DNA from: Patescibacteria group bacterium
GTDB taxonomy: Bacteria > Patescibacteriota > Patescibacteriia > UBA9934 > GWF2-40-263
Reading direction: 5' to 3'
Length of the DNA: 64,000 nucleotides
Assembly: GCA_041661745.1 (NCBI GenBank)
Contig: JBAZTR010000001.1
Span: 300,306-364,305, forward strand
Shown here in pieces: positions 26,612 to 62,543 of this stretch; positions within the stretch are counted from its first letter, which is position 1, and each line of letters opens with the position of its first letter. The notes below the pieces were generated by a model, which did not search any database, was not told the origin of the DNA, and was given only the letters and a program-made list of their open reading frames with translations. The translations under genes and the position numbers were made by a program.

Positions 26612-26612
26612 G

Positions 26613-26659: not shown

Positions 26660-26672
26660 TATTTAAAAATTT

Positions 26673-32668: not shown

Positions 32669-34258
<1,590 letters not shown>

Positions 34259-36666: not shown

Positions 36667-36701
36667 GGGAATCTCCACGAAAGCGGCCCGAATCGGGCCA
36701 T

Positions 36702-39802: not shown

Positions 39803-39810
39803 AAAGTAAT

Positions 39811-43974: not shown

Positions 43975-44023
43975 CCCTCTCCCCATCCCTCCCCCGTATG
44001 AGGCCATACGAGGGAGGGAGAAT
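43975..44023. repeat. C-rich hairpin repeat, family 1a, copy B
   Basis: ccctctccccatccctcccccgtatgaggccatacgagggagggagaat, 49/49 identical to copy A. It lies between the mltG stop and the island-3 promoter. Confidence 0.7.
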
Positions 44024-44028
44024 AATTT

Positions 44029-45075
44029 TTATCTTAAATACAAAGCTCGATTTTGATTTTGTTCATCATTTGTCGCCGCGTAATGAACTTTGCCGTCGGC
44101 ATCAGTTAAAAAATACCAATAATTATTTTCTGTGGGATAAATTACCGCGTTGATGGCCGATAGACTGGGATTAGAAATTGGCCCGGGGGGCAAGTCACGA
44201 TATTTATAGGTGTTGTAAGGCGAATCAACCGAACGATCGACATCGGAAGTATAAGCTGTTTTGCCGTCACTCCCAACAACAAAATGAACAGTTGAGTCGG
44301 CCTGCAAAGCCATGCCAATATCAAGTCGCCGCCAAAAAATATCAGCCACTATGGCGCGGTCCTCGTCAGAAGTTACTTCCTTTTCAATAATCGAAGCAAG
44401 GGTCACGACATCGTGGACAGATTTACCCTGGCGAATAATTTCGGCCCGCAGCTCTGGTGAAAACTTTTTACTGAAATTGGTTAGGAGTTTATATGTCAAT
44501 TCGTCGGGAAAACCGCTCCGCGAAACGCGATAAGTATCGGGAAATAAATAACCCTCTAACGACTCTTCTTCTTCTAAAGCGCGACGAATAAGTTCGTGCT
44601 CAGATAAAAGAGAGGTTGCCTCCGGCCAGTCGATCTCGGCCAAACTGACTTTCCAATCATTACCCCAACCGTTACCAAAAACCGAATCAATTCGCTCGAC
44701 CATCTGGTCGATCGTCAAACCCTCGGGAAAAGTTATGGTAACTTCATCCGGCGTAATGTCGGTCAGCACATTCACCAGTGAAGCGTAATTCATGCCGGTC
44801 TGTAAAGTGAAATCACCCGGTTGAAACCGATGTTCGACGCCTGTGAACTTTACATAAAACCGAAAGCCCCAACGACTGGGAATTAAATCAGCTTCTTTTA
44901 AAGCCTGGGAAATCTCGCTGACACTTTCACCTGAAACCACGGTTAAAGAAACTTCCGAAGCGTTAGGCCCCGGAGAGCGCAGAAAAGCGTCCCAAACAAA
45001 AGAGGCCCCGACCACGGTCGTGACCAAAATCGCGACGCTGCAAAAAACTATAACGAGATTAATTAATCTACTCAT
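44029..45075 (-). CDS. mltG: endolytic murein transglycosylase MltG (YceG-like)
   Basis: N-terminal TM, then the YceG domain: ...KTAYTSDVDRSVDSPYNTYKYRDLPPGPISNPSLSAINAVIYP...YWYF. Confidence 0.8.
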   Translation of the reverse strand: MSRLINLVIVFCSVAILVTTVVGASFVWDAFLRSPGPNASEVSLTVVSGESVSEISQALKEADLIPSRWGFRFYVKFTGVEHRFQPGDFTLQTGMNYASLVNVLTDITPDEVTITFPEGLTIDQMVERIDSVFGNGWGNDWKVSLAEIDWPEATSLLSEHELIRRALEEEESLEGYLFPDTYRVSRSGFPDELTYKLLTNFSKKFSPELRAEIIRQGKSVHDVVTLASIIEKEVTSDEDRAIVADIFWRRLDIGMALQADSTVHFVVGSDGKTAYTSDVDRSVDSPYNTYKYRDLPPGPISNPSLSAINAVIYPTENNYWYFLTDADGKVHYAATNDEQNQNRALYLR

Positions 45076-46157
45076 AACAAATCGTGTTGTTCTTTTTTTT
45101 GAAGCTCGGAAATTATTTCTTTAACCCGTTGAGCCTGACTTTTTGGACAAACCAGCAAAGCGTCGCCAGTATCAACCACAACAATGTCGTTCATGCCAAG
45201 CACAGCCACAGTCTTCCCTTCTGGAGCGTAAATAAGTGAGCCGGTGGTTTCCACTAAAACGCTGTTACCTTTTACAACATTGCCACCATTATCACACAAA
45301 CGATCATAAAGTGTGTCCCAAGCACCAATGTCGCTCCAACCAAAATCGCCTTTTATAATTAAAACATCGTTCGGGTCCATTTTTTCGGTCACCGCATAAT
45401 CAAAAGATGTTTTTGGTAATCGGGAATACAAATCGCATATATCATCCGTAGGGGCACAAAATTTTGTGCCCCTACGGGCGATTTGTATTTTTCGTAAAAT
45501 TTCCGCCATTTCCGGCGCATATGTTTCAAACGCCTCCATAAACTTTCGCGGTGTCCACATGTAATACGAAGCGTGCCACAAGTACGAACCGTCTTCTAAA
45601 TATTTTTTAGCCACCTCAAACGGCGGTTTTTCGGTGTGACCTAAAAATTCGTAGACTTCGACGCTGTCACGAGTTTCAATTTTTTTTCCAAACTTGGTGT
45701 AACCAAGCACTGTGCTGGGAAAAGACGGCACTACCCCAATATCCAACATCTTACCGGTTTCCAAAATCAACTGTTCGCCAACTTTCAAACAATTCAAAAA
45801 TTTATCTTCATCGCCAATAAAGTGATCGGACGGAACAAAAACAATCGGTTCGTCCGGGTCGTCCAGCTCAAGAGTGGCGGCAACATAGCCCATGGCCGGA
45901 CCAGTGTCACGTTTTTCCGGCTCAACGATAATTTGCTTTTCCGGAAGATCAACAAAATTTTCACGCAAAGTTTTTTCCAAAGCCGCGGACACGGAAAAAT
46001 AAATCTTCTCGGCCGGAAACGACCGCAACAAACGACGATAAGTGTCGCGAATCAAGGGCTCCGCGGAAACCAACTCGCAAAATTGTTTTGGTTTGGCCGC
46101 CCGGCTCATGGGCCAAAGTCTTGTTCCCGAACCGCCGGCAAGAATTACAGCTTTCAT
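45072..46157 (-). CDS. mannose-1-phosphate guanylyltransferase-like sugar nucleotidyltransferase
   Basis: MKAVILAGGSGTRLWPMSRAAKPKQF is the NTP_transferase G-x-G-T-R-L signature; 361 aa. Confidence 0.75.
   Translation of the reverse strand: MKAVILAGGSGTRLWPMSRAAKPKQFCELVSAEPLIRDTYRRLLRSFPAEKIYFSVSAALEKTLRENFVDLPEKQIIVEPEKRDTGPAMGYVAATLELDDPDEPIVFVPSDHFIGDEDKFLNCLKVGEQLILETGKMLDIGVVPSFPSTVLGYTKFGKKIETRDSVEVYEFLGHTEKPPFEVAKKYLEDGSYLWHASYYMWTPRKFMEAFETYAPEMAEILRKIQIARRGTKFCAPTDDICDLYSRLPKTSFDYAVTEKMDPNDVLIIKGDFGWSDIGAWDTLYDRLCDNGGNVVKGNSVLVETTGSLIYAPEGKTVAVLGMNDIVVVDTGDALLVCPKSQAQRVKEIISELQKKEQHDLL
45446..45477. repeat. perfect 32-bp palindrome ccgtaggggcacaaaattttgtgcccctacgg inserted in-frame in the nucleotidyltransferase gene (encodes ...ARRGTKFCAPTD...)
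   Basis: The identical core gtaggggcacaaaattttgtgcccctac recurs in non-coding DNA at 61423-61450, upstream of the tmRNA. Confidence 0.6.
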
Positions 46158-48238: not shown

Positions 48239-49490
48239 AAAGCTCTTCTTCTACCTCCATTAAACGATTATATTTTTCCACGCGCTCGGAACGGGACAAG
48301 GAACCGGTTTTGATAAACTCGGCGTTAACGGCCACAGCCAAATCGGCAATTGTTGTGTCAGAAGTTTCGCCAGAACGGTGCGAAACAGAAACTTTGTACC
48401 CGACCTGCTTAGCCAAAAAGATCGCTTCCATGGTTTCGGTTAAAGTTCCGATCTGATTTAACTTAATCAGAATGGCGTTACCGGATTTTTCAGCAATTCC
48501 TTTTTTGAGACGCTCGACGTTGGTGACAAAAAAGTCATCACCGACCAGGGCAATTTTGTCACCCAACTCTTTGGTAAGTTTTTTCCAACCAGCCCAGTCG
48601 TCTTCGGCCAAACCATCTTCCAAAGAAACGATTGGATATTTTTTAACCCACTTTTGCCACATGGCAATCATTTGCTCGGCGGTTTTTTGGCCACCGCCTT
48701 TTTTTAACTGATATTTTTTCGTTTTTGGATTATACAATTCGGACGTAGCCGGATCAAGGGCAAAAGCAACATCCTTACCCGGGCGATAACCAGCCGCCTT
48801 AACAGCTTTCATAAGCCATTGCAACGCGGCCTCGTTTGTTTTAAATGGAACAGCAAAACCGCCTTCATCCCCCACGCCAACCGGAAAGCCGGCTTTCTTA
48901 AGTAATACGCCGAGAGCATGAAAAACTTCCGCGCCACAACGTACCCTTTCGCGCAAAGTCTTTTGTTGCGGGACAATCATGAATTCCTGAAAATCAAGAC
49001 ACCAACCGGCATGGGCTCCACCATTTAAAACATTCATGGTCGGGTGTGGCAAACGAAAGGTTTTATCTTTAACATCAAAAGCAAAACGTAAATATTGATA
49101 GAGCGGCATTTTTTTGTGTCGAGCCGCAGCGTGAGCACAAGCCAAAGAAACACCTAAAATGGCGTTAGCCCCCAAACGCGATTTATTTAACGTGCCGTCG
49201 AGCATGATAAGTTTCTTATCAATTTCCTGCTGACGCATAACATCAAAACCAGTCAATTCTGGGGCAATAATTTTGTTGACATTGCGGACGGCTTTCAAAA
49301 CTCCTTTTCCGCCATAACGATTTTTGTCACCGTCGCGAAGCTCCAGGGCCTCGTGGACACCGGTCGAAGCGCCGCTCGGAACCGCAGCTGAACCAATGGT
49401 GCCATCGGTTAACAACACCGTAACCTTAAGCGTTGGATTACCGCGTGAATCCAAAATTTCGTGAGCGTGAACGGTTTCAATTTTTGACAT
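48231..49490 (-). CDS. eno: enolase
   Basis: [23 protein letters not shown]...; [18 protein letters not shown]; 419 aa. Confidence 0.9.
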
Positions 49491-49491
49491 A

Positions 49492-50679
49492 CTAATTTTC
49501 TAAAGCGATTAAACCTGGTAATTTTTTTCCAGCTAAGAACTCCAGCATAGCTCCGCCACCAGTTGAGACTAAAGTAAAACTCTCGGCTAAATTTACTTCT
49601 TCAATCATTGGTACAGTATCGCCGCCACCAACCACGGTTTTGGCCTTACCGGTCCGAGCGGCAATGGCCTTAATTAAAGCCTGCGTTCCGGAACAAAAAT
49701 TTTTGACTTCGCAATATCCAAGCGGTCCATTCCAAACAATGGTTCGAGCCGTCTCGATCGTCTCGATCAAACCGGCCAAAGTTTTTCTACCTATATCAAT
49801 AATAATATCCTTTTCATCAACCTCTTCAATAGCGACTAATTTTAATTTAGCTTGAGTACTTAAACGGCGAGCTACACAAACATCAACCGGAAGAACAATT
49901 TTTTCAGACCACTTTTTTAAAATATTTTTGGCGGACGACACGCCATCTTTGTCAAAAGCCGATTTACCAATTTCTTTCCCTTGGGCCACAAAAAAAGCAT
50001 TGGCTAAAGCGCCACCAATAAAAACTTTATCAACTCGTGGTAGCAAGGCTTCCAAAACCGGTAACTTGTCAGCCATTTTTAAACCACCGGACACCAAAAT
50101 AAACGGCCGTTTTGGTTTAGTTTCAAAAAGTGATTCAAGCACGGAAACTTCGTGGTTCAAAAGTGGACCGGCGTAAGACGGCAGTTCCTCGGTAATTGCA
50201 TCAACTGAAGCGTGAGCGCGATGCGAAACAGCAAAAGCGTCATTAATATAAATATCACCCAAAGCCGCCAACTGTGTGGCAAAGGCTTTGCTGTTTTGTT
50301 CTTCGCCCGGATTAAACCGTAAGTTTTCCAACAAAATAATGTCGCCGTCGTGCATGCTCTCAATTAAGCGAACAGCTTTTTCGCCCACCACATCGCGGCA
50401 AAGTTTCACCTTGGTGCCAAACAATTCGCTTAAACGCTTGGCAATGGGGGCGTTGGAAAAAGCCGCCACCCGTTTACCACCCGGCCGACCACGATGCGAC
50501 AAAACGATAATTTTGGCTCCATGTTGGCGCAGCCATTCCAAATCAACCGCGGCGCGGGCGATGCGGCCTTGTGGGCCATCAATCGCTTTACCGTGTTTAA
50601 CCGGCACGTTGCCGTCGATTCTAACTAGCACGCGCTTACTGCGAAGATTATCGGGACTGGTTAAACGGCGCAGTTTCAT
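49492..50679 (-). CDS. pgk: phosphoglycerate kinase
   Basis: [12 protein letters not shown]...; [20 protein letters not shown]; 395 aa. Confidence 0.9.
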
Positions 50680-50709
50680 AAGTACTTATAGGGTACACTT
50701 TTAAGGTGG

Positions 50710-51615
50710 CTATTTCAACTCCAAAATAACAATCTCCGGAGGATTAAAAAGGCGCGCCCGCGGTCCGGTTTCGCCGAGACCTGAAGTAACAAAAAGTTTG
50801 GTTCCGGAAAAATCAAAAAGTCCTTTGCTGTATTCTTTAGACAAAACTGTGGGAACAGAAGAAACTGAACCAACAAAAGGCAACCGGATTTGCCCACCGT
50901 GTGCATGCCCCGAAACAATCAAAGCAACTTTTGAACTTTCAATATTAAAAACCGCATCTGGGTTGTGCGACATTAATATAACCGTTTCGTCGGGACAACT
51001 ATTCACAGTTTCACTAACGACACCGCCGTTCCACAAATCATTAACCCCGGCCAAACAAAAAAACTTTTCATCAGATATTTTAATCTCAGCAGAAGAATCA
51101 ATTAGAACCGTTATCCCCAGGGCTTGGAGTTTATTTTTTATTTCATCTGGCAGCTCGGCTTCAAAGTCATGATTTCCTAAAACCGCAAAAACACCCAAAG
51201 GGGCGGAAAGTTCGGCTAAAGCGTTTAAATCTTCGGCCTCACCTAAATATCCAAAAACATAATCACCGAGTAGCAAAACCAAATCAGGTTTTTGTTTATT
51301 GGTTTTTTCCACAACCTCTTCAACCCAGCCACCTCCTTTGTAAGGGCCGACATGCAAATCAGAAAGAAGCGCGACTTTAATTGACTGATCGATTCCCTCT
51401 ACTTCAATTTTCTCTTGATTAACCACTAAAAGTCTTGGTTCAATAAAGCTACCGTAAAAAATCACGCTCCAAGAAAAAAATAAAACAATGACCACTAATA
51501 AAAGGAGCCATTGCTTTAAAATTTTTCGACCGAATTTTGTAACAATATCAATCAGAGCCGCCCCGACCACGACTAAAAAAACCCAAATTACCGCTTCAAA
51601 CATCAACCACAACAT
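50710..51615 (-). CDS. membrane-anchored calcineurin-like metallophosphoesterase
   Basis: Two N-terminal TM helices; DLHV...GDYVFG...GNHDFE...SHNP...GHAHGGQ metallophosphatase motifs. Confidence 0.7.
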   Translation of the reverse strand: MLWLMFEAVIWVFLVVVGAALIDIVTKFGRKILKQWLLLLVVIVLFFSWSVIFYGSFIEPRLLVVNQEKIEVEGIDQSIKVALLSDLHVGPYKGGGWVEEVVEKTNKQKPDLVLLLGDYVFGYLGEAEDLNALAELSAPLGVFAVLGNHDFEAELPDEIKNKLQALGITVLIDSSAEIKISDEKFFCLAGVNDLWNGGVVSETVNSCPDETVILMSHNPDAVFNIESSKVALIVSGHAHGGQIRLPFVGSVSSVPTVLSKEYSKGLFDFSGTKLFVTSGLGETGPRARLFNPPEIVILELK

Positions 51616-51621
51616 AGCCGG

Positions 51622-52626
51622 TTATTTACCGACAAACATGGCCAGATCCATAAGTCGCATCGAATACCCCCATTCGTTGTCATACCAAGCCAGAACCTTA
51701 ACCATATCGCCATCAACCACCCGAGTCATTTCCAAATCAACAACCGATGAACATGACTCATGAATAAAGTCAGAAGAAACTAATGGTTCGTCCGAGGCTT
51801 TCAAAATTCCCTTCCAGCGTGGTGATTTAGCCGCCTGTTTAAAAACCGCGTTAACTTCTTCGACCGTGGTATTTTTCTTTAAAAGAAAAGTGAAGTCAGA
51901 CAACGAAACATCAATGGTTGGCACCCGAACTGCTAAACCATCAAACTTACCCTTAAGAGTTGGAACAACTTCGCCAGTGGCTTTGGCCGCACCGGTTGAA
52001 GTCGGGACAATATTAATCAAAGCTGCGCGAGCGCGACGCATATCCGGGTGCATTTTTGGTGGCAAACCGTCAACAATATTTTGTTCAGCCGTAACCGAGT
52101 GAATTGTCGTCATCATGGCTTTTTTGATTCCAAAGGCTTCCTCCATAATCGCTGCCACTGGAGCAATGGAGTTGGTGGTGCAAGAAGCATTGTTAATAAT
52201 CTTGTCAGATTTTTTATAATCCTTGTGGTTCACGCCCATAAGGTAAGTCGGCACCTCCTTAGCTGGCGCGGAAATAACCACCTTCTTGGCCCCAGCCGTA
52301 AGATGAGCCGAAGCCGCGGTTTTGTCGGCAAAGCGACCGGTGCATTCTAAAACCACATCAACTTTGTATTCCCCCCACGGCAACTTGGTCGGCTCGGTTT
52401 CGGCGATGACCGGAATTTTTTTACCATCAATAATCAAATGTTTGGCATCAAAAGAAACCTTGTGTGGCCATTCACGAAAAACCGAATCGTATTTTAAAAG
52501 ATGAGCAAGAATTTTTGGTTCGGTTAAATCGTTGATGGCCACAAACTCAACACCCTTGCGTTCAAAACCGGCCTTGAAAACCGTGCGGCCGATACGACCG
52601 AAACCGTTAATGGCAATGCGAATCAT
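51622..52626 (-). CDS. gap: glyceraldehyde-3-phosphate dehydrogenase (type I)
   Basis: MIRIAINGFGRIGR...; ASCTTNS active site; 334 aa. Confidence 0.9.
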   Translation of the reverse strand: MIRIAINGFGRIGRTVFKAGFERKGVEFVAINDLTEPKILAHLLKYDSVFREWPHKVSFDAKHLIIDGKKIPVIAETEPTKLPWGEYKVDVVLECTGRFADKTAASAHLTAGAKKVVISAPAKEVPTYLMGVNHKDYKKSDKIINNASCTTNSIAPVAAIMEEAFGIKKAMMTTIHSVTAEQNIVDGLPPKMHPDMRRARAALINIVPTSTGAAKATGEVVPTLKGKFDGLAVRVPTIDVSLSDFTFLLKKNTTVEEVNAVFKQAAKSPRWKGILKASDEPLVSSDFIHESCSSVVDLEMTRVVDGDMVKVLAWYDNEWGYSMRLMDLAMFVGK

Positions 52627-52640
52627 ATTTGTTTATTAAG

Positions 52641-52720
52641 GACACGAGTATGTAGTGTGTAGTAGGTAGGCAGAGGCTTAGTTAGTTTCCGCCTACATAC
52701 TACCTACTACGTACTCTGGC
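52641..52720. repeat. intergenic hairpin repeat, 'tacctac' family, copy 2
   Basis: gagtatgtagtgtgtagtaggtaggcagaggcttagttagtttccgcctacatactacctactacgtactc. Confidence 0.6.
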
Positions 52721-52747
52721 CTAGATTAAATCTGAGACAATTTTAAC

Positions 52748-52786
52748 ACAAAACCGCCAGGTTCGCACCTGACAGTTGTGTATGAA
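52748..52786. repeat. upstream copy of a ~39-bp imperfect direct repeat flanking the acidic-protein cassette
   Basis: acaaaaccgccaggttcgcacctgacagttgtgtatgaa, against acaaaaccgccgggtttaaccccgacggctgtacatgaa at 53304-53342. It has an 11-nt exact core and ~74% identity overall. Confidence 0.45.
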
Positions 52787-52806
52787 TTTTTCAGACAATA
52801 CTTACC

Positions 52807-52835
52807 TTGACAGGAGGGGAAAAAATCCATAAGAT
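52807..52835 (+). promoter_or_regulatory. sigma70-like promoter TTGACA-N17-TAAGAT driving the small acidic-protein gene
   Basis: -35 at 52807-52812 and -10 at 52830-52835; AGAGAGG RBS at 52870-52876. Confidence 0.5.
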
Positions 52836-52882
52836 GGCCGCGACTTCCGACACTCCAGCCGGAAATGCAAGAGAGGCCCCAC

Positions 52883-53242
52883 ATGCCCCGAACCCTAACC
52901 TTGGAAGAACAGAAGAGGCTTCTGGTCGGTCTCGCTGATGGAGACAAGAACGTTCCGGGTTCCATCGATCCAGACGAAGACGTCTCCGATGAGGACGGCA
53001 ACCTCGTCTTCGATGCCGGGTACTTCTTCGAGGCCGGCATCTGGAAGGATCTGGGAGCGGCCATGGCCGCCATGGTAGAGCTCTTCGGGCGGAAGAGTGT
53101 GGTTGTCCAGTGCCTTCCGATCGAGGGCAACGACACCGCCATGATCATCGAGTTCGTCTCCGTGCCCGACGATCTCAAGATCCCCGACATCGACGTCGAC
53201 CCCGACGACGAGGAAGACGAAGAGGAGGACGAGGAGGACTAG
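52883..53242 (+). CDS. small (119-aa) high-GC protein with a strongly acidic C-terminal tail (DPDDEEDEEEDEED); function unknown
   Basis: Start MPRTLTLEEQ (ATG at 52883, RBS 6 nt upstream). GC3 is saturated. It has its own promoter and terminator and sits in the gap-tsf intergenic region. Confidence 0.5.
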   Translation: MPRTLTLEEQKRLLVGLADGDKNVPGSIDPDEDVSDEDGNLVFDAGYFFEAGIWKDLGAAMAAMVELFGRKSVVVQCLPIEGNDTAMIIEFVSVPDDLKIPDIDVDPDDEEDEEEDEED

Positions 53243-53268
53243 ACCAAGACCTCCCGACTCCGACACGT

Positions 53269-53297
53269 GCGTTCCACCTTCATGGAGCGCTTTTTTT
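53269..53297 (+). terminator. intrinsic terminator of the acidic-protein gene (gcgttccaccttcatggagcgc plus TTTTTTT)
   Basis: 7/8-bp stem then a U-run. Confidence 0.55.
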
Positions 53298-53303
53298 ATA
53301 AAA

Positions 53304-53342
53304 ACAAAACCGCCGGGTTTAACCCCGACGGCTGTACATGAA
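53304..53342. repeat. downstream copy of the cassette-flanking direct repeat
   Basis: See 52748-52786. Confidence 0.45.
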
Positions 53343-53377
53343 ATTTATCCCTCCGAAGCCCGAAGGGCGAAGGGGGA

Positions 53378-53968
53378 TTATTCACCCAAACTCATTCTTG
53401 TAAAACGACCGACCTGCATGTTTTCACCCAAAATCCCCACAACCTCTTTAACCATAATTTCTACAGTCTTGGTATCGTCTTTAATAAACAACTGCTCCAA
53501 CAAACAAACTTCAGAATAAAATTTATTCAACTTGCCTTCGACAATCTTTTCAACAATTTCGGCCGGTTTGTTTTGTTCGGCAATTTCGGCGCGATAAGTT
53601 TCTTTTTCTTTTTCAACTATCTCGGCCGGTACTTCTTCACGACGCACATAGCGCGGCGCGGTTGCGGCCACGTGCATGGCCAAATCGCGACCCAAATTTT
53701 GGAATTGTTCGGTTTTAGCAACAAAGTCAGTTTCACAGTATAACTCCACCATGGCAGCTAATCTGTTGTTAGAGTGAAGGTAGGTAAAAATTCGGCCTTC
53801 CTTGGCGACCCGTTCGGCTTTTTTATCAGCCTTGGCCACACCTTTTTTACGAAGAATCTCAGTTGCTTTTTCCAAGTCGCCGCCGGATTCCTCCAACGCC
53901 GCTTTGGCGTCCATCATGCCAGCGTCGGTCATTGCCCGAAGCTGCATGACAATTTTGGCATCGATCAT
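53378..53968 (-). CDS. tsf: elongation factor Ts (short form)
   Basis: MIDAKIVMQLRAMTDAGMMDAKAALEESGGDLEKATEILRKKG is the UBA-like N-domain; 196 aa. Confidence 0.85.
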   Translation of the reverse strand: MIDAKIVMQLRAMTDAGMMDAKAALEESGGDLEKATEILRKKGVAKADKKAERVAKEGRIFTYLHSNNRLAAMVELYCETDFVAKTEQFQNLGRDLAMHVAATAPRYVRREEVPAEIVEKEKETYRAEIAEQNKPAEIVEKIVEGKLNKFYSEVCLLEQLFIKDDTKTVEIMVKEVVGILGENMQVGRFTRMSLGE

Positions 53969-53980
53969 ATTTTTATTTTA

Positions 53981-54090
53981 GCTTGTAGCTGGTAGGAGGT
54001 AGCTGGTAGGTCAGAATCTATTTTAGAATCCGCCTACAAGGCCAGCTAAGCTGGCCAAGCTACAAGCTACTTCCTACAAGCTGTAAATTT
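53981..54090. repeat. intergenic hairpin repeat, 'tacctac' family variant, copy 3 (rpsB-tsf spacer)
   Basis: gcttgtagctggtaggaggtagctggtagg...gcctacaaggccagctaagctggccaagctacaagctacttcctacaagc. Confidence 0.55.
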
Positions 54091-54835
54091 ATTTTTCGGT
54101 AATCACCGGGGCGGCGACATTTTGTGGGGCCGCCATTTTGGCTGTTTCAAACGCCTTGCGGCCTTCGATAATTGCCTCGGACATTAATTTAGTAATTAAC
54201 GCCAGTGATTTGGCAGCGTCGTCGTTAGCCGGAATAACAAAGTCAACATCGTCAGGATTAATATTGGTGTCGCAGATGGCGATAACCGGAACATGCATGG
54301 TCACGGCTTCACGCACAGCGGTTTTGTCGCAATGCATGTCGAGAACAAATACCGCTTCCGGCATACGTTCAAGCGCTTCAATGCCCCCAACCTTACCGGT
54401 TAACTCTTCGATCTCGCGAGCAAACCACAACTGTTCTTTTTTAGTATATTTTTTTAATTCACCGCGTTCGTTTTGTTCACGCAACATTTTTAAACGGCGA
54501 ATAAGTTTTTTGACTTCACCGAAGTTGGTTAAAGTACCGCCAAGCCAGCGAGCCGAAACATACGGCATACCGCAACGAGTCGCTTCCTTAGCCACCGGCT
54601 CTTGAGCCTGGCGTTTGGTGCCGACAAATAAAATAAGGCCACCGCGTGAAACGACGCCTTTAACATACTCTAAGGTTTCCTTAAGAAGCTTTTGAGTCTC
54701 CTCAAGATTGATGATATGGATACCGCCACGTTCAGCGAAAATGTACGGTTCCATTTTTGGGTGCCAGCGTTGGGCCTGATGGCCAAAATGCACGCCAGCC
54801 TTAAGCATTTCCTCCAAGGAAGGAATGGTAGGCAT
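54089..54835 (-). CDS. rpsB: 30S ribosomal protein S2
   Basis: MPTIPSLEEMLKAGVHFGHQAQRWHPKMEPYIF...; 248 aa. Confidence 0.9.
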   Translation of the reverse strand: MPTIPSLEEMLKAGVHFGHQAQRWHPKMEPYIFAERGGIHIINLEETQKLLKETLEYVKGVVSRGGLILFVGTKRQAQEPVAKEATRCGMPYVSARWLGGTLTNFGEVKKLIRRLKMLREQNERGELKKYTKKEQLWFAREIEELTGKVGGIEALERMPEAVFVLDMHCDKTAVREAVTMHVPVIAICDTNINPDDVDFVIPANDDAAKSLALITKLMSEAIIEGRKAFETAKMAAPQNVAAPVITEK

Positions 54836-54951
54836 AAATTTGTTCCTTTTAGTTACCCGACGGATCGACTTAAGCCCGAATTTCGGGAGGAAAAAGCCGA
54901 TTTTGCCCGTCTTAGAGATTAATTACGTTGGAAGTATAAATGAATATGGCC

Positions 54952-54980
54952 TTGACGTCAAGACTAAATCCGTGTATTTT
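54952..54980 (+). promoter_or_regulatory. sigma70-like promoter TTGACG-N17-TATTTT (a perfect TATAAT also at 55005-55010) upstream of the small high-GC gene
   Basis: ccttgacgtcaagactaaatccgtgtatttt; RBS GGGAGAG at 55018-55024. Confidence 0.45.
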
Positions 54981-55033
54981 AATTCGGCCGTGCCGCATGG
55001 CCGGTATAATCCAACTCGGGAGAGTTGCTACCG

Positions 55034-55342
55034 ATGTCGACTAGCCAGGGAACTTTCACCCCGCCCCGCCGCGCCGCCCACACCACCGAGACGCGGACCA
55101 TCGTCGGCCTGTCCATCGACAAGGCCGCGAAGAGCTTCAAGGCCGCTGTCTTCGCCAAGAAGGGCGACGACCCGGTCAAGCGTCTCGCGACGATCCGGGA
55201 GCGCGCCATCGCGCTTCTGAACTGTCACACCCTCGGGGACGACCCCAAGAGCAGCGAGATCCTCCGCAAGGCCGGGAGGCTGGCCAAGAAGAACAGCCTC
55301 CCCGACGACATCGTCGACATGTTCCCTGTCTCGGCCAACTAG
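55034..55342 (+). CDS. small (102-aa) high-GC basic protein, function unknown
   Basis: ATG at 55034 (MSTSQGTFTPPRRAAH...) 9 nt after the RBS; GC3-rich, with its own promoter and terminator. It is inserted between rpsB and the downstream membrane-protein gene. Confidence 0.45.
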   Translation: MSTSQGTFTPPRRAAHTTETRTIVGLSIDKAAKSFKAAVFAKKGDDPVKRLATIRERAIALLNCHTLGDDPKSSEILRKAGRLAKKNSLPDDIVDMFPVSAN

Positions 55343-55382
55343 GGTCGTACACCTTCCTCGTCTTCCGACCGTCTAACTAAAA

Positions 55383-55430
55383 GACGCCCACACCTGCGGC
55401 GTCTCTGAGTAGACCGGCCGGAATTTTTTT
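55383..55430 (+). terminator. tandem hairpins plus T-run terminating the small high-GC gene
   Basis: gacgcccacacctgcggcgtc, then gaccggccggaattttttt. Confidence 0.5.
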
Positions 55431-55435
55431 ATTTT

Positions 55436-55484
55436 CCCTCTCCCCAGCTCTCCCCCGTATGAGGCCATACGAGGGAGGGAGAAC
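55436..55484. repeat. C-rich hairpin repeat, family 1a, copy C
   Basis: ccctctccccagctctcccccgtatgaggccatacgagggagggagaac. Confidence 0.7.
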
Positions 55485-55502
55485 TAAAATTTTATAAATA
55501 TT

Positions 55503-55547
55503 TCTTCCTCCATCATCGCCACGATGGGGGAGGATAAGAGGAGGGGG
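55503..55547. repeat. C-rich hairpin repeat, family 1b, inverted copy of 26613-26659
   Basis: ttcttcctccatcatcgccacgatgggggaggataagaggaggggg. Confidence 0.6.
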
Positions 55548-55548
55548 A

Positions 55549-56190
55549 TTAAATCTGCTCATCAACCAATTGATGACGACGACGCACGCGCTCGGCTTGC
55601 AACAAAACATATCCCACTCCGGTTAACCCCCCAAGAACTAAACCAGAAAAAGCATTGGATGGAATATTTGGTCGAGCCGGCCAGCGAGAATTGAGTGGTG
55701 TATCAACCACCCGCACTGAAATATCACCACCAGACAAATACGAAGTGGCTTGCTGTGTTAAAACATAAGCCATGGCATTAACAATTTGTTCAGCTTGATC
55801 AACATCAACATGATAAGCCGCCAAGGTTAACAAACCGTTACCGCGCGAAACCGAAGCGGAAACCATTTTACCCCAAGCTTTGCGTTTTTTATCTTCGCGA
55901 TCAGGAAAAACCGATTGATCGATTTCAAAACCAGCACTCATGACTTGGTCAAAAAAAGATGTGGTGTAAACAATGGTCGCCAAATTTTCCGCCAAACGTT
56001 CAACCGAACGGCTGGCCGTGTAAGCATCAAGGGACGAGGCGTTTTCTTGTAAAATTAAAAGACGAACCGTGGAAGAATATTTTAGGGGCTGAACAAAAGA
56101 AACAATGAGCGCAATAACCAATCCGGTAAAGGCCATGGAAATAATTGTGGCCCAGCCGCGCAAAAGAACGGTGGAATGATTTTTAGCCAT
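55549..56190 (-). CDS. bitopic membrane protein, Wzz-like (polysaccharide chain-length determinant family) candidate
   Basis: 213 aa with an N-terminal TM, a periplasmic region, and a C-terminal TM containing GLVLGGLTGVGYVLL. Confidence 0.35.
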   Translation of the reverse strand: MAKNHSTVLLRGWATIISMAFTGLVIALIVSFVQPLKYSSTVRLLILQENASSLDAYTASRSVERLAENLATIVYTTSFFDQVMSAGFEIDQSVFPDREDKKRKAWGKMVSASVSRGNGLLTLAAYHVDVDQAEQIVNAMAYVLTQQATSYLSGGDISVRVVDTPLNSRWPARPNIPSNAFSGLVLGGLTGVGYVLLQAERVRRRHQLVDEQI

Positions 56191-56210
56191 ACTTTTTAAA
56201 ATTTCAAATT

Positions 56211-57290
56211 TTAGTGGGAACCAAGAACCAAATCAATTTTCAAACTTGTCCCGTTGCGATCAATAGTCAAACTAACCGAATCACCAATGTGATAATCAGA
56301 CAGCAATTCGTCGAGCGATTGTTTTTCGGAAATTTCCAAACCGCCGACCGAAATAATTATGTCACCACGCAACAAACCAGCGGTTTCGGCGGGACTGCCT
56401 TTAGTTATTGTACCAAGTAATGTCCCTTTGGTGTAGCTGCGCGTGTAAGTTTCATTGTAGCCAACGGCCCGGGCCAGATCAGTGGCCACTGCCCCAAACC
56501 ACAAAGAGGCGATTTTATTTTCTTTTAACAAAGAATAAACGACCGGCTTAAAAGCCGTTACCGGTAAAACCGTTTCGGTTTCGCCAATTTTATTGGCCAT
56601 TAAAACACCAATCACTTCACCCGAAGAATTAACCACGGCACTACCAGAAAAACGTGAATCAATTGAGGTGTTCAGAACCAAGCGCCGACTAACAGTTTCG
56701 GCTGGCAAAGAAATTTCGCCAATGCGTTCGGTGCGCACCAACGGCGAAACAAATAATTCGTTAGCCGCCGAAACGACAAACAGATTATCGCCCGGGTTAA
56801 CCGACAAAGAATTACCAAAAGAAACAACGGGCGCGTTAGAAATTTCTATTTTCAAAAACAAGACACCGGTCGCAGTATCGGCTAACGCCTGCTGCACGGC
56901 GTAAACTTTTCCGTTATAAAGAATCATCGCTTGGGCGGCCTCGGTCGCGGAAAGATAAAGGGGAGCCGTTAAAAGCCAACCGTCAGAAGTAATAAAAAAT
57001 CCGCTTGCTTGCCCTTCGCCCGGTTCGTAAGCTCCGGTAGCGTCGGATGGAGCGGAAAAAATTTCCACCGCGGCCACTCCAACATCTTCTCGGACCTGTT
57101 CGACAGCTTGGCCGTAATTGCTTGGATCAGGGCGGACGCGCTCGTCTGACAAATTAATGGAATTGGGAGTGGAAATAACCGTATCGTAATCACGTAAATA
57201 ACTTAAAGTTAACGATGCTGTTATGACACCGGCTCCGCCGCCCAAAACTATAGCCAGTAAAAGAATTGATGGGGTCGAAAGCATTTTCAT
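56211..57290 (-). CDS. HtrA/DegP-like trypsin-family serine protease with a C-terminal PDZ domain
   Basis: N-terminal TM; SIDSRFSGSAVVNSSGEVIGV (GxSGxx region); PDZ GSPAETAGLLRGDIIISVGG. Confidence 0.65.
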   Translation of the reverse strand: MKMLSTPSILLLAIVLGGGAGVITASLTLSYLRDYDTVISTPNSINLSDERVRPDPSNYGQAVEQVREDVGVAAVEIFSAPSDATGAYEPGEGQASGFFITSDGWLLTAPLYLSATEAAQAMILYNGKVYAVQQALADTATGVLFLKIEISNAPVVSFGNSLSVNPGDNLFVVSAANELFVSPLVRTERIGEISLPAETVSRRLVLNTSIDSRFSGSAVVNSSGEVIGVLMANKIGETETVLPVTAFKPVVYSLLKENKIASLWFGAVATDLARAVGYNETYTRSYTKGTLLGTITKGSPAETAGLLRGDIIISVGGLEISEKQSLDELLSDYHIGDSVSLTIDRNGTSLKIDLVLGSH

Positions 57291-57300
57291 ACAAGAAAAA

Positions 57301-58074
57301 TTAAGTCCATTTGGCGGTTAAAACAATAACTACCGCAATCAAACCGAAGGCTAACAGGTAACGTTTTAAAACCATCGGACTTAATCGGTTAAATAAATGG
57401 GCGCGTACTATACCAAGAAAAATGTAAAAAAACAAGGTTAGGATAGCCGCGTTGGAAAAAAAGCTGGCCGGTAAAAAAGCTAGACACAAAAACAATTCCG
57501 CTAACAATAAAACGGCCCCAAAGGCGTTGGGAATAATTTTTTCCTTCCCGATCTTACAAACCCAAAGAACCGAAGCAAAAAGAGCAAAAATAAAAACCGC
57601 ATGCAATGGAACGATTAACCAAAGCGAAAAACCAAAAAAAAGTCGCAGGGCAAAAAAGGCCGCGGTAACAAAGAAAACGCTTACCACTCCCATGACCAAC
57701 GACAAATATTCCAAGGCGTTAACTTGATACGTGCTAGATAAATACAGAAAGGAAAAAATGTTTTCCGCAAACAACCAAAGTAAAAGGGTGGCTAAGGTAA
57801 TAATTAAAATTTTCATGTCCCGCCCTTCGACAAAAAGCAACAAAGAAAAGGCCGAAACAGCTAAACAAAAAGGTAAGGCAAAGAAAGACCAAAAATCAGC
57901 TTTATTAAAAGACCAACCGGCCAGTTTGGCTAAAATAAAAAAAAGAATCAAAAGGGCCACGCCGATAACTATAAAAGGATGACCGGGAAACCAAAACAAA
58001 GCCATTGACCCAATGGCCATGGTTAAACCAGCTAAGATGGGAAGGGCGCGTAGAAAAACCAACATGTTATTCAA
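57301..58074 (-). CDS. polytopic membrane protein, function unknown
   Basis: 257 aa, about eight TM helices. Confidence 0.45.
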   Translation of the reverse strand: MNNMLVFLRALPILAGLTMAIGSMALFWFPGHPFIVIGVALLILFFILAKLAGWSFNKADFWSFFALPFCLAVSAFSLLLFVEGRDMKILIITLATLLLWLFAENIFSFLYLSSTYQVNALEYLSLVMGVVSVFFVTAAFFALRLFFGFSLWLIVPLHAVFIFALFASVLWVCKIGKEKIIPNAFGAVLLLAELFLCLAFLPASFFSNAAILTLFFYIFLGIVRAHLFNRLSPMVLKRYLLAFGLIAVVIVLTAKWT

Positions 58075-58828
58075 TCTTCATTATTTCCACGGTCAGGGTG
58101 CCAAAAACTTTCAAAAATCCAGTGGTGGTCTCAAGTCTGTCAATCAAAGCGTAACGACCGATTTCTTGATTTAAGTAACTAAGTCCGTTATTTATTATCG
58201 GCTTAAGTATAATATTGGTCAAAAAAGAAGGAATGGATAAATTACCAATTTTTATCTTAATGTCTTCGGCCACCACCAAGCCGTCCTTGGCCGCCGGGAT
58301 GACTATAAAACGCAGGGCGTTTCCGTTAGACTGACCGGCTATTGGCAAAAATATCTCAACTCCCTGCCTTTCGTCAATTGCCACCTGAGCCAGGTTGCCG
58401 GAAAAGAAAGACAAATTGTTATCTTTTAAAAGAGTCCGAAAAGAGGTAGTGATTGAATTTTCCGATAAAGACAACTCGACACTGCGATCGGCCAGACTGC
58501 CGGCTCCAGATTGTAGACGTTCGGTTAAAACCGCACCAAAGGTTTCTGAAATATAAGTTTCCAGTGGGGCGCCGGCCGCAACAACATGAAGCGGGGCCGG
58601 AGTTTTGTAAGCCAAACTGGAAAGTACGGGCACATTAATAAGACCCGAGGCCGCGACAATCCAAGCAAGGCCAACAACCGCCAACAATAGAATCAAAAAT
58701 AAAAAAAGACAGCCCCAAAGTCTTCCGTGACCATGTCGCTGTGGTAATGATTCCTTTTTTTCTGACGGGGGAATTTTTTCTGTTTCTTTAGCCGCCACCG
58801 GTCCGGATTTTTTTTCGATCATAACCAT
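58067..58828 (-). CDS. membrane-anchored hypothetical protein
   Basis: 253 aa; a Lys/Glu-rich N-terminus, then one TM. Confidence 0.45.
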   Translation of the reverse strand: MVMIEKKSGPVAAKETEKIPPSEKKESLPQRHGHGRLWGCLFLFLILLLAVVGLAWIVAASGLINVPVLSSLAYKTPAPLHVVAAGAPLETYISETFGAVLTERLQSGAGSLADRSVELSLSENSITTSFRTLLKDNNLSFFSGNLAQVAIDERQGVEIFLPIAGQSNGNALRFIVIPAAKDGLVVAEDIKIKIGNLSIPSFLTNIILKPIINNGLSYLNQEIGRYALIDRLETTTGFLKVFGTLTVEIMKIE

Positions 58829-58831
58829 AGA

Positions 58832-59248
58832 TTATTTTTGCAGCCAGGAATTTTCGGACAAAACTTTTTGAAGGCGGGTCTGCCCTTCTTCAAGTTTATT
58901 CGGCTCACCGGACAAACCTTGTTTTAGCAACTCCATGGCGCTAACCAATTCAAAATGAACGGCCCGACCTTCGGCCGGCACGCGCAAGGCCAACAAATTT
59001 TGTTCAACTTCGGAAACAAGCGCCAAGCGCGCTTCCCAATAAGTGTCTGTCTCGTAACGATTTTGAAAATCACCCAAAGCTAAGCGAGCCGAAGTTTGAT
59101 ACTGTTCGAAAGTTATGGTTGAACCCTCGTTGATAACCTCAGATGAATTTTTTGACACAATGGCCCAAACCACAAACAAAAGTAAAAGTAATGACAGAAA
59201 ACCTAAAACAAAAGGAAACCAATTTCGATGATGAATGTCGTGAAACAT
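58832..59248 (-). CDS. small membrane-anchored hypothetical protein
   Basis: 138 aa; N-terminal TM. Confidence 0.4.
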   Translation of the reverse strand: MFHDIHHRNWFPFVLGFLSLLLLLFVVWAIVSKNSSEVINEGSTITFEQYQTSARLALGDFQNRYETDTYWEARLALVSEVEQNLLALRVPAEGRAVHFELVSAMELLKQGLSGEPNKLEEGQTRLQKVLSENSWLQK

Positions 59249-60378: not shown

Positions 60379-60669
60379 TTAAAGGTTTTTATAGGCAAAA
60401 TTTTTAAGGGTCAGATTAAGTTGCTGTTTTAGTGCGGCCCGACCATTACCGCCTTTCAAAAATTTTTCTCTCTTTTTCGCTTCTTGTTCAGTTCTGTAAA
60501 CCTCGTAATACAACAAGACAAACGGCCGCCGATTTTTTGTCGACTTTGTTGTGCCTTCATTATGTTCTTTCATGCGACGATCCAAGTCGGTCGTAAAGCC
60601 AGTATACAATCTTCTATCTTTTAAACTCAAAAGAACATAAACAAAATATGGGATCGCAATTAATTTCAT
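60379..60669 (-). CDS. GIY-YIG nuclease-superfamily small protein
   Basis: YFVYVLLSLKDRRLYTGFTTDLDRRMKEHNEG...RPFVLLYYEVY is the GIY-YIG core; 96 aa. Confidence 0.75.
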   Translation of the reverse strand: MKLIAIPYFVYVLLSLKDRRLYTGFTTDLDRRMKEHNEGTTKSTKNRRPFVLLYYEVYRTEQEAKKREKFLKGGNGRAALKQQLNLTLKNFAYKNL

Positions 60670-60994: not shown

Positions 60995-61402
60995 TGGTGG
61001 AACTGGAGGGAATTGAACCCTCGTCTGGTGAGAGCAACCCGAACGCTTCTTCAAGCGTAGTCCCGCTTGGAATGTGCCTGCGGTGTGATATAAGCGGAAC
61101 AAAACTCACAACGCAGCGCCGGTCGCCTTTTCTTAGTGTCTAGAGACCGGATACCTAGACGCCCAGCCCGAGATTATGACACCTCAATTTCCCTTATCAG
61201 GCGTCGGGGAACGAGATGGGTTGTTTGCCCTTAGGCGACAACCGAAACAAAGCTAGGAACAGCGAACGCTTTCGCGAAGGTGTTCTTCACTTGTGAGAAG
61301 ATATTGGCATTTGCTTCTCTAATACCCAGGATTTACGAGGTAAGGTATGTCCTCGGCTTGCACATTCGGATCGCAGGCTCCCATCGATCCCGATCAGTCC
61401 CC
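60995..61402 (-). ncRNA. ssrA: tmRNA (SsrA), one-piece, ~408 nt
   Basis: Minus-strand 5' end GGGACUGAUCGGGAUCGAUGGGAGCC... 3' end ...GACGAGGGUUCAAUUCCCUCCAGUUCCACCA, giving a T-arm GAGGG/UUCAAUU/CCCUC and an acceptor CAGUUCC pairing with the 5' GGGACUG. Candidate tag reading frame ...GCG AAA GCG UUC GCU GUU CCU AGC UUU GUU UCG GUU GUC GCC UAA. Adjacent to smpB. Confidence 0.75.
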
Positions 61403-61469
61403 CATTGGTGGTAATCAATGGCGTAGGGGCACAAAATTTTGTGCCCCTACGACACCACCAATGGGGGCG
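61399..61469. repeat. composite palindrome immediately upstream of the tmRNA: outer arms cccccattggtgg/ccaccaatggggg around the gtaggggcacaaaattttgtgcccctac core
   Basis: The core is identical to the in-frame palindrome at 45446-45477. Confidence 0.55.
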
Positions 61470-61481: not shown

Positions 61482-61925
61482 TTATTCCCGCATTTTTTCG
61501 CGAATCTGGCGATCGACCTCGCGTTTTTTAATGGAAGCGCGTTTTTCGTATTTCTTTTTACCGTGAGCCAAGGCAAAAGAAATCTTAACAAGATTCCGAA
61601 GAGTATATACTTTAATTGGCACTAAAGTCAAGCCTTGGGTGTTGATTTTGCCGATCAATTTATTGATATCGCGACGGCGAAGAAGAATTTTACGATTGCG
61701 ATACGGGTCGTATGATTCTTGGGCCCCGGCCGGCTCGTATCGTGAAATGAGTGCGTTCTTTAACCACGGCGCGCCATCTCTAATCATAATAAAAGCGCCT
61801 TTGAGTTGAACGTGACCGGCCTTGGCCGATTTAACTTCAGCGCCAGTTAAAACAAGACCACCCTCAAAAGTCTCGAGAAACTCGTAATCGTATTGGGCAC
61901 GCTTATTGATAGCCAACGATTCCAT
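61482..61925 (-). CDS. smpB: SsrA-binding protein SmpB
   Basis: Real start MESLAINKRAQYDYEFLETFEGGLVLTGAEVKSAKAGHVQLKGAFIMIRDG...GLTLVPIKVY...ALAHGKKKYEKRASIKKRE (ATG at 61923-61925). The ORF-track 5' extension is spurious. Confidence 0.85.
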   Translation of the reverse strand: MESLAINKRAQYDYEFLETFEGGLVLTGAEVKSAKAGHVQLKGAFIMIRDGAPWLKNALISRYEPAGAQESYDPYRNRKILLRRRDINKLIGKINTQGLTLVPIKVYTLRNLVKISFALAHGKKKYEKRASIKKREVDRQIREKMRE

Positions 61926-61991
61926 AACCGATTTTAGTATAGCACATCTTGATTTTTGCCCAATATCTGATACACTCTTCCATATAAAAAT

Positions 61992-62543
61992 ATGCGCATC
62001 CATCGACATCGATTTCGTAAGCCAAAATTCGACATTCCGGAATATCGGGTTAATGAAGAGATTACTGCCCCGGAATTGCGAGTGATTGACGAAGCTGGCC
62101 AACCGCTTGGGGTAATCAGCACCATTGAAGCCATCCGCATTGCCGCGGAAAAAGGTTTTGATTTGGTTGAAGTTTCGCCTAAAGCCGAACCGCCGGTGGC
62201 CAAAATTTTGGACCATGGCCAATTTAAGTATCAAAAAGAAAAGGAAGTGCGAAAACAAAAGGTGCAGTCGCACGAAGTTGACACCAAGGGTATTCGGCTA
62301 TCAGTGCGTATTGGCGAACACGATTTGGAAATCCGCCGACTGCAAGCCAAAAAGTTCTTGGAGCGTGGTGACAAAATTCGCCCGGAAATAGTTCTCCGTG
62401 GCCGCGAAAAAGCCCATACTGACTTGGCCGAAGAAATAATTAAGGGTTTCGTTAAGTCCCTGGAAATATACTTCCCGCTCCGCATTGAACAACCCATTTC
62501 TAAAATGAATGGCCGGGTTACCACCACCGTGGCCCGCGGCTAA
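61992..62543 (+). CDS. infC: translation initiation factor IF-3
   Basis: ELRVIDEAGQPLGVISTIEAIRIAAEKGFDLVEVSPKAEPPVAKILD ... RGREKAH. A non-AUG start is likely, as in other infC genes. Confidence 0.85.
   Translation: MRIHRHRFRKPKFDIPEYRVNEEITAPELRVIDEAGQPLGVISTIEAIRIAAEKGFDLVEVSPKAEPPVAKILDHGQFKYQKEKEVRKQKVQSHEVDTKGIRLSVRIGEHDLEIRRLQAKKFLERGDKIRPEIVLRGREKAHTDLAEEIIKGFVKSLEIYFPLRIEQPISKMNGRVTTTVARG

Follow-up and report, generated by a model that had tools for sequence, protein, structure and literature searches.

A small acidic-protein gene between gap and tsf in Candidatus Uhrbacteria, probably a clade-restricted resident flanked by a native and a copied terminator

The stretch of DNA analysed here (the window, 64,000 nucleotides of contig JBAZTR010000001.1, assembly GCA_041661745.1) comes from a Patescibacteria group bacterium, and its element of interest is a small open reading frame (ORF) for a 119-residue acidic protein between gap and tsf. 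This segment of the host genome has a GC content of about 44% and carries nearly every gene on the minus strand. Judged by Tsf, the closest genomes are those of Candidatus Uhrbacteria (Patescibacteria), with 74-77% amino-acid identity. The minus-strand order near the ORF is rpsB, tsf, spacer, gap, metallophosphoesterase, pgk and eno. The spacer between tsf and gap is 751 bp long and contains a promoter, a Shine-Dalgarno (SD) sequence, the ORF, a terminator and two direct repeats (Table 1). A first-pass annotation, made from the sequence alone, had described a portable expression cassette inserted here and bounded by repeats that resemble a target-site duplication or an att-like scar. The location between gap and tsf was given correctly, while the word "inserted" was an interpretation rather than an observation. 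An assembly chimera was rejected as the source of the arrangement, which recurs in two further public assemblies (ENA and Logan, possibly from non-independent samples); the same architecture in other species also opposes it.

Table 1. Features in and around the tsf-gap spacer, in positions of the window
Feature	Positions	Strand	Details or basis
Putative ORF promoter, sigma-70-type, TTGACA-N17-TAAGAT	52807-52835	+	TTGACA 52807-52812, 17-nt spacer, TAAGAT 52830-52835
Shine-Dalgarno-like AGAGAGG	52870-52876	+	6 nt upstream of the ATG at 52883
Gene for the 119-residue acidic protein	52883-53242	+	Family conservation, dN/dS, AlphaFold2 model
Intrinsic terminator of the ORF, 8-bp stem and T7	53269-53297 (stem 53269-53290)	+	Folding, conservation
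Left repeat, extra copy of the tsf terminator	52745-52790	-	Stem-loop 52752-52777, then UUUUGUGUU; folding, alignment
Right repeat, ancestral tsf intrinsic terminator	53301-53346	-	Stem-loop 53308-53333, then UUUUGUUUUU; folding, orthologues
Proposed extended -10 of the gap promoter, minus strand TGTGTTAAAAT	52740-52750	-	Directly after the T tract of the left hairpin
GC-rich insert CCCTCCGAAGCCCGAAGGGCGAAGGGGG, about 25-28 nt	53349-53376		Between the tsf stop codon and the tsf terminator; window only
gap	51622-52626	-	Neighbour of the ORF
tsf	53378-53968	-	Neighbour of the ORF

The expression signals reported at the first pass were recovered. The promoter and the ribosome-binding site AGAGAGG are present at the spacing described, the ORF encodes 119 residues with the C-terminal DPDDEEDEEEDEED and a high GC content at third codon positions (GC3, 0.79), and the hairpin with its T7 tract folds at -12.6 kcal/mol (z = -3.0). 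Loci of Uhrbacteria, given L numbers below, were gathered by fetching the tsf neighbourhood, one genome per species. Promoter-like matches in the region number three against 1.1 expected, and a single match alone is not significant; the promoter call is supported because it is conserved in orthologues. Identical TTGACA, a 17-nt spacer and CCATAAGAT stand upstream of the ORF in L004, L087 and L090, which makes four lineages including the window, and L005 has the variant TTGACC-N17-TAAGTT. Orthologues carry AGGAG, AAGG or GGAG as SD sequences at comparable spacing. A start at 52883, and not at the ATG at 52865, is supported by the N-termini of the family and by the NCBI gene call (119 residues, P0001). 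The terminator hairpin and its T run are kept in all six aligned lineages with differing stem sequences, and compensatory changes are found at 5 of the 8 pairs. A complete, self-contained unit of promoter, SD sequence, ORF and terminator, unlike its neighbours in composition, is thus supported as first described.

The relatives of the protein are few and divergent. A word-indexed search with the single protein matched only the protein itself, annotated as hypothetical protein WC702_01765 of a Patescibacteria metagenome-assembled genome. The first homologue came from a synteny-guided tblastn search, in which L004 was found to encode a protein 33% identical in the same slot and orientation, and an ORF listing added a divergent homologue in L005. 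A profile search of an index of 5.8 billion proteins returned 4 proteins, and HMMER, run exhaustively over 1.84 billion representatives, recovered 7 at E <= 0.001. The index search also supplied an eighth member, the L083-type protein P0003, and the family comprises P0001-P0008. When the conserved promoter pattern was scanned on metagenome contigs, only two loci were found, both of known lineages.

The position of the family is nearly constant. It adjoins gap on the opposite strand in the window, L004/L092, L005, L083, L087/L088/L089 and L090/L093/L085; the assembly of L086 covers only the tsf side, where the ORF and tsf converge. Convergence with tsf holds wherever the tsf side is assembled, except in L083. 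The order is gap, ORF, tsf in L087, L088 and L089, and two tandem paralogues lie between gap and tsf in L090, L093 and L085. In this tandem lineage (L090 2541-3379, L093 202-1086, and L085), one copy is tail-less (P0005, GC3 0.70) and the other has a long acidic tail ending CCD (P0006, GC3 0.90); inspection shows a separate TTGACA...TAACAT-like signal for this second copy. Scanned with a profile hidden Markov model (HMM) built from the family, neither the window nor any other fetched locus showed a second copy. In L083 (2798-3868), tsf is replaced by a 160-residue ORF with a weak match to IS200-like Y1 transposases (22.3 bits, cutoff 23), and a GH1 glycosidase gene comes next; these downstream neighbours indicate a local rearrangement beside the slot.

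The comparison of the gap-tsf spacer among relatives, which had been proposed at the first pass, bears directly on the cassette. There, the idea was to be given up if the ORF proved to be a conserved, repeat-free gene of related genomes, and this is what the related Uhrbacteria carry at the gap-tsf position. The spacer is only 70-102 bp long and holds no ORF in L003, L009, L011, L014 and L019. The empty site of L003 (6583-6680) is 98 bp long with 16% GC, and its tsf terminator runs straight into TGTGATATAAT. This junction is expected either way, as the ancestral state or as the product of a whole-unit deletion. In the high-GC Uhrbacteria L007 and L008 (61-62% GC), the tsf-gap spacer holds an unrelated ORF of 111-113 residues on the tsf strand with a lipoprotein-like N-terminus (L007 6624-6965, L008 4948-5283); therefore, the slot has been filled more than once in the group.

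In neighbour-joining (NJ) trees of Gap and of Tsf, the ORF-bearing lineages fall into one clade with L003 nested inside it, and L007-L009, L011, L014 and L019 lie outside. These trees are most simply read as a single gain at the base of the clade, followed by a loss in L003. The protein itself has evolved fast, with 26-40% identity between orthologues of different lineages compared with 84-90% for Gap and 74-88% for Tsf. Pairwise identities over the core columns of the family are 0.20-0.39, except for L005 and L083 (0.81), and the family is therefore too saturated for a test of tree congruence; L090a, translated out of frame in this comparison, is disregarded. L005 and L083 (81% identical) were the only pair close enough for an estimate of non-synonymous (dN) and synonymous (dS) substitution rates, which gave dN 0.089, dS 0.382 and dN/dS 0.23 for the ORF, compared with dN/dS 0.016 and dS 0.33 for gap. 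Judged from this pair of sequences, the ORF is under purifying selection at a non-synonymous rate about 17 times that of gap, and the similar dS of ORF and gap fits their co-inheritance.

The structure prediction proposed at the first pass was carried out and gave a confident alpha/beta fold with no known relative. From an alignment of eight sequences, AlphaFold2 returned a mean predicted local distance difference test score (pLDDT) of 79.6 and a predicted template modelling score (pTM) of 0.68. The model has a helix at residues 7-20, strands at 34-37 and 40-44, helices at 46-50 and 57-69, and strands at 74-79 and 86-93. The pLDDT is 87-92 at residues 41-100 and 53-58 at residues 101-119. The protein is thus predicted to consist of a folded alpha/beta domain, residues 1 to about 100, and a disordered poly-acidic tail from about 101 to 119. 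All family members are acidic (35 aspartate and glutamate against 8 lysine and arginine residues in the window protein). Their tails vary from none in P0005 and 4 residues in L004 to about 35 residues in P0006 and P0007. By inspection there is no hydrophobic N-terminus that would suggest export, and the product is best explained as cytoplasmic. A Foldseek search with the predicted fold gave no significant hit in PDB (best E 0.5) or BFVD (best E 0.06). Searches of Pfam (with any member), PHROGs, PADLOC, NCBIfam and PDB sequences gave no match, and no Rfam family was found in the region.

The direct repeats are real. In their best register (Table 1) they agree at 34 of 46 positions (74%), and the shuffling check proposed at the first pass places this beyond chance, as 300 dinucleotide-preserving shuffles of the spacer gave a mean of 25.1 and a maximum of 30. 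The repeat core matches twice within the 64-kb window, at the two flanking copies only, and a search across the window for the repeat bounding other cargo found none. The earlier description overlooked that both repeats form stem-loops on the minus strand, each with a T tract directly behind it. The left hairpin folds at -21.1 kcal/mol as minus-strand RNA (z = -4.7) and at -10.8 as plus-strand RNA; the right one folds at -19.0 and -11.6 kcal/mol, respectively. On the minus strand, none of 200 shuffles was as stable as either hairpin, and plus-strand folding is weaker because several pairs are G-U. Since they are stable chiefly as minus-strand RNA, the hairpins are oriented like tsf and gap, unlike the ORF. 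Both have the make-up of an intrinsic terminator, with 10-11 pairs followed by TTTTGTTTTT or TTTTGTGTT on the minus strand.

The two repeats have different origins. The right repeat starts 45 nt past the tsf stop codon and stands back to back with the ORF terminator, with an A/T tract common to both. Orthologous AAAACCGCC...GGCGGTTTT hairpins end tsf in L004, L086, L087 and L090, and the consensus of the tsf terminator has 11 pairs over six sequences with double changes at four of them. Conserved with compensatory changes, this hairpin identifies the right repeat as the orthologous tsf terminator. The left copy aligns within the same terminator family, including a conserved U-G pair, and the likeness of the two window copies reaches into their non-stem flanks. 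It has no counterpart in the aligned L004, L087 and L090; compared with these, the window carries about 20-28 extra nt between a conserved ATTTTAACACAAAA and the ORF promoter, a segment confined to the window lineage. It lies 556 bp beyond the right copy, fused to the proposed gap -10 element, with no gene immediately upstream on its strand. The repeats are thus Rho-independent terminators of the minus strand, the native one of tsf and a local paralogous copy, which leaves a target-site duplication or att scar unsupported. Compared with ordinary intrinsic terminators, including back-to-back terminators between convergent genes, they have the same GC-rich stem-loop and U tract on the tsf strand; the left copy differs in that it lies at no gene end and represents a local terminator duplication fused to a promoter.

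The left hairpin runs straight into TTTTGTGTTAAAAT, a sequence conserved in relatives, which from consensus and conservation is probably the extended -10 of the gap promoter. Within it, ATTTTAACAC is nearly invariant in the window, L004, L087 and L090. In the outgroups L009, L011, L014 and L019, and in L003, TGnTAnAAT is found at the corresponding place directly after the tsf terminator. The gap leader of the window, from the proposed promoter to the start codon, contains a long, near-perfect hairpin on GTAGTAGGTAGG (52647-52723, -39 kcal/mol, z = -6.1), and a related hairpin lies at 12269-12363, upstream of the gene at 11252-12268. The gap leader has a different palindrome, GTCATTGCGAGC...GCTCGCAATGAC, in L004 and L090 and none in L087 and L005. 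Since these leader hairpins differ or are missing among lineages, intergenic hairpins turn over quickly here.

Taken together, the ORF is most likely a resident, clade-restricted coding gene of a low-GC subclade of Candidatus Uhrbacteria, flanked by a native and a copied terminator, and no recent mobile cassette. The gene would have been gained once near the base of the subclade, into the ancestral junction at which the terminator of tsf directly borders on the promoter of gap, and then inherited vertically, diverging from gap and converging on tsf. Transcription would proceed from its own TTGACA-N17-TAAGAT and stop at its own hairpin and T7 tract. In the window lineage only, a gap-proximal copy of the terminator would then have been acquired between the divergent promoters of gap and the ORF, so placed that its U tract runs into the gap -10 element. 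There, it may act as a second stop, ahead of the gap promoter, for read-through from rpsB-tsf or for antisense transcription across the ORF.

Some observations weigh against this account. The signals for transcription and termination of the ORF are conserved, yet they are read from sequence. The single-gene NJ trees leave the ORF-bearing lineages unresolved among themselves, and therefore both the loss in L003 and the gain, instead of retention, of the left hairpin rest on parsimony. No homology supports any function. A tail that is nearly absent in L004 and absent in P0005 cannot be essential to the core activity of the family. Finally, the left hairpin with TTTTGTGTTAAAAT has the same layout as the terminator-promoter junction of L009, L011, L014, L019 and L003, which favors an older duplication. 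In this alternative, the tsf terminator was doubled when the gene entered at the base of the clade, and the left copy is the original, retained in the window lineage only. The tsf-type AAAACCGCC...GGCGGTTTT is kept across the clade, so that 74% identity is no proof of a recent copy. However, the older duplication needs two or three independent losses compared with one gain, and the corresponding place in L087, L090 and L004 is taken by one homologous block that lacks the hairpin, AACAAACCTATACACAC, which points to a hairpin-less common ancestor. The similarity of the window copies also extends into their non-stem flanks, and we consider the older duplication unlikely.

The composition of the ORF is a further difficulty for a long-resident gene. 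Its GC3 of 0.79 stands against 0.35-0.48 in the neighbouring genes, its GC content of 0.75 at 4-fold sites against 0.48-0.56 in gap, tsf and rpsB, and its C/(C+T) of 0.80 at two-fold NNY codons against 0.42-0.47 in these neighbours. Because 4-fold and NNY sites are shifted too, the GC3 shift does not come from residue composition. In L004, L087, both L090 paralogues and L086, 4-fold GC is 0.67-0.93 with neighbours at 0.48-0.61; the rise is slight in L005 (4-fold GC 0.56) and in L083, its close relative (GC3 0.56). Between ORF-bearing lineages, the proportion of synonymous differences (pS) in gap and tsf is 0.62-0.66, near saturation. Taken alone, such a foreign-looking synonymous composition suggests horizontal acquisition. 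A long-resident gene should have drifted to the genomic composition, and the bias of the ORF is not explained by simple amelioration. Either a gene-specific force maintains the GC3 bias, or the gene has been imported repeatedly from unsampled donors.

Import would mean that a high-GC donor supplied the gene recently by horizontal transfer, or its alleles repeatedly by replacement, with synteny kept by homologous recombination through gap and tsf. GC3 values of 0.66-0.90 in five of seven lineages, compared with 0.36-0.53 in the flanking gap and tsf, would follow from it, some Uhrbacteria have genomes of 61-62% GC (L007-L009), and eight other genes in the window are GC3-rich. However, no family member has been found in a high-GC context, every locus with assembled flanks having low-GC ones, and of the high-GC genomes L007 and L008 hold the unrelated ORF in the slot while L009 holds none. 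Low-GC sequence also reaches right up to the promoter and the terminator, and the ORF dS is similar to that of gap in the one close pair. Import therefore appears quite improbable.

A mobile or portable cassette, in which recombination duplicated a target of about 40-46 bp and the repeats mark the ends of the unit, is very improbable. The repeats are non-random, the composition is sharply unlike the flanks, and empty sites are found in L003, L009, L011, L014 and L019; recombination between the two copies would restore the junction of a single terminator and gap promoter seen in L003 and the outgroups. Such repeats should then recur around the ORF elsewhere, but in a test of five loci from four other lineages the flanking 46-mer pairs of L004, L005 and L087 are within shuffled controls, and the one pair that exceeds them in L090 and L093 joins the two tandem coding paralogues. 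The position is fixed at gap in all members with an assembled gap side and, with L083 as the exception, at tsf. About 5 kb on either side contain no recombinase gene: the interval 48378-58968 holds eno, pgk, the metallophosphoesterase gene, gap, tsf, rpsB, Wzz-like and HtrA-like genes and unannotated ORFs free of recombinase or transposase domains, and the ORF itself has no Pfam match. No terminal inverted repeats join the ends of the unit, a duplication of 46 nt with 74% identity is unlike a target-site duplication, and the ORF dS equals the gap dS in the close pair. A phage or plasmid origin was also rejected, as tblastn against phage and plasmid collections gave zero family matches.

The comparison with integron cassettes and small att-duplicating elements leads in the same direction. 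These share with the locus a single ORF and imperfect, hairpin-forming repeats on both sides. However, the ORF has its own conserved promoter and terminator, its position is fixed, the repeats are missing at orthologous loci, and the hairpins are 26-nt terminators with T tracts and not attC sites. No integrase domain was found in the neighbours, and inspection of the repeat borders did not reveal the attC core GTTRRRY. A non-coding origin, either as a chance ORF in a GC-rich spacer or as a non-coding or antisense RNA element, is hardly credible, for although several frames are open on both strands (e.g. 52726-53190, minus, 154 residues) and libraries of known protein families do not recognise the product, amino-acid conservation in the plus frame extends across 8 proteins at a dN/dS of 0.23, GC3 far exceeds GC at second positions in the ORF frame, the SD sequence and start are conserved, the AlphaFold2 model is confident and Rfam gives no match.

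A clade-restricted resident gene would resemble the orphan small genes known from conserved intergenic slots. It shares with them the restriction to one subclade, fast evolution, the lack of a recognisable domain, its own promoter and terminator, fixed synteny, and differences of presence and absence among relatives. It differs in that the ORF holds GC3-rich, C-ending codons despite near-saturated neighbours, which is unexpected for an old resident.

With regard to function, the first-pass annotation had pointed to DNA-mimic or anti-restriction proteins and to chaperone-like proteins on account of the acidic tail. Neither sequence libraries nor fold comparisons with PDB and viral models linked the protein to any known family of DNA mimics (Ocr, ArdA, DMP12/19, UGI) or anti-restriction proteins. 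It is possible, if doubtful, that the product is a polyanionic decoy or chaperone for a basic, nucleic-acid-binding, fast-evolving partner. This proposal is made purely by analogy, because the architecture resembles the delta subunit of RNA polymerase (RNAP) and because size and charge resemble DNA mimics.

Like RNAP delta (RpoE of Firmicutes), the window protein has a folded N-terminal domain of about 90-100 residues and a disordered poly-acidic C-terminus. The fold, alpha-beta-beta-alpha-alpha-beta-beta, is not a winged helix, and no Pfam match, including HARE-HTH, was obtained; the tail is also much shorter and missing in some members. We know of no link between the ORF family and RNAP. In delta, the N-terminal domain spans residues 1-90 and the disordered, acidic C-terminal region residues 91-173, with a net charge of -47 (PMC7749165). 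The DNA mimics T7 Ocr, ArdA, and Neisseria DMP12 and DMP19 are likewise small, strongly acidic and cytoplasmic. Ocr is a 116-residue monomer of unusual composition (PMC3439906), and DMP12 binds the histone-like protein HU (PMC3643605). Unlike them, the ORF is chromosomal and vertically inherited, has no sequence or fold likeness to a solved structure or viral model, and carries much of its charge in a disordered tail and not on a rigid, DNA-like surface.

Several further features were seen in the window. The GC-rich insert between the tsf stop codon and the tsf terminator is missing in all five other lineages of the tsf-side alignment. Judged by eye, it could form a small hairpin and loosely resembles a CCCTCTCCCC...GTATGAGGCCATACGAGGGAGGGAG repeat family, which has three copies at gene ends (55440-55485, 43975-44032 and 39754-39805). 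A 66-nt module occurs twice in inverted orientation with 91% complementarity (55488-55553 and 26607-26672). An identical, perfect 30-nt palindrome, CGTAGGGGCACAAAATTTTGTGCCCCTACG, occurs twice, 16 kb apart (45447-45476 and 61422-61451), the second copy between the tmRNA gene and smpB. The tmRNA gene (60995-61401, minus, tag ANANIFSQVKNTFAKAFAVPSFVSVVA) is flanked by smpB (61482-62273), which has about 120 N-terminal residues beyond the SmpB domain, and by a gene for a small GIY-YIG nuclease (60379-60669).

The GC3-rich codon use of the ORF is not confined to it. GC3 in the window is bimodal, with nine genes at 0.73-0.99 and the rest at 0.35-0.50. Besides the ORF and the 102-residue ORF described below, GC3-rich genes lie at 15203-18160, 32669-34258, 34468-35610, 35896-36678, 36919-38298, 42692-43897 and 63356-63859. 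Three of the GC3-rich genes encode MopE-repeat proteins (PF11617), and these and the gene at 34468-35610 have lipoprotein-like N-termini; the GC3-rich genes for 985 and 380 residues contain long, D/S/T-rich 12-nt tandem repeats. The GC3-rich islands are each about one gene long, with low-GC spacers between them. A replication-strand cause of the C bias at third positions was rejected, as GC3-rich genes lie on both strands of the window.

A unit much like that of the ORF lies at 54950-55440, between rpsB and the Wzz-like gene. Its ORF (55034-55342, plus) encodes a basic protein of 102 residues with a GC3 of 0.92 and no Pfam match, and its TATAAT box, GGGAGAG SD sequence and downstream hairpins are all opposite to the neighbours. 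It has a syntenic homologue in L004 (28% identity, E 5e-8, GC3 0.71), and L005 has a GC3-rich ORF in the same slot.

Literature searches for GC-rich genes or codon heterogeneity in Uhrbacteria or the candidate phyla radiation (CPR) returned nothing relevant. One speculative possibility, on which we place limited weight, is that clade-restricted genes of Uhrbacteria, such as the ORF, the 102-residue look-alike and the MopE-repeat lipoproteins, actively maintain a C-ending, GC3-rich dialect, with the ORF protein acting as a polyanionic decoy against a rapidly evolving phage or host partner.

The locus contributes a small, previously undescribed protein family specific to one Uhrbacteria subclade, with a confident predicted fold that has no significant match in two structure libraries. 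It also illustrates cleanly, in a natural setting, how a terminator can be copied within a locus and become fused to the promoter next to it. The GC3-rich codon use of this fast-evolving resident gene recurs in other genes of the window. If the proposed dialect is real, a gene-specific force would be at work in a reduced symbiont genome; it might be control of expression through codon choice, or GC-biased gene conversion that acts on fast-evolving accessory genes at recombination hot spots. If such codon use is general, it would matter for the interpretation of compositional islands in CPR genomes, which are usually counted as recent horizontal transfers.

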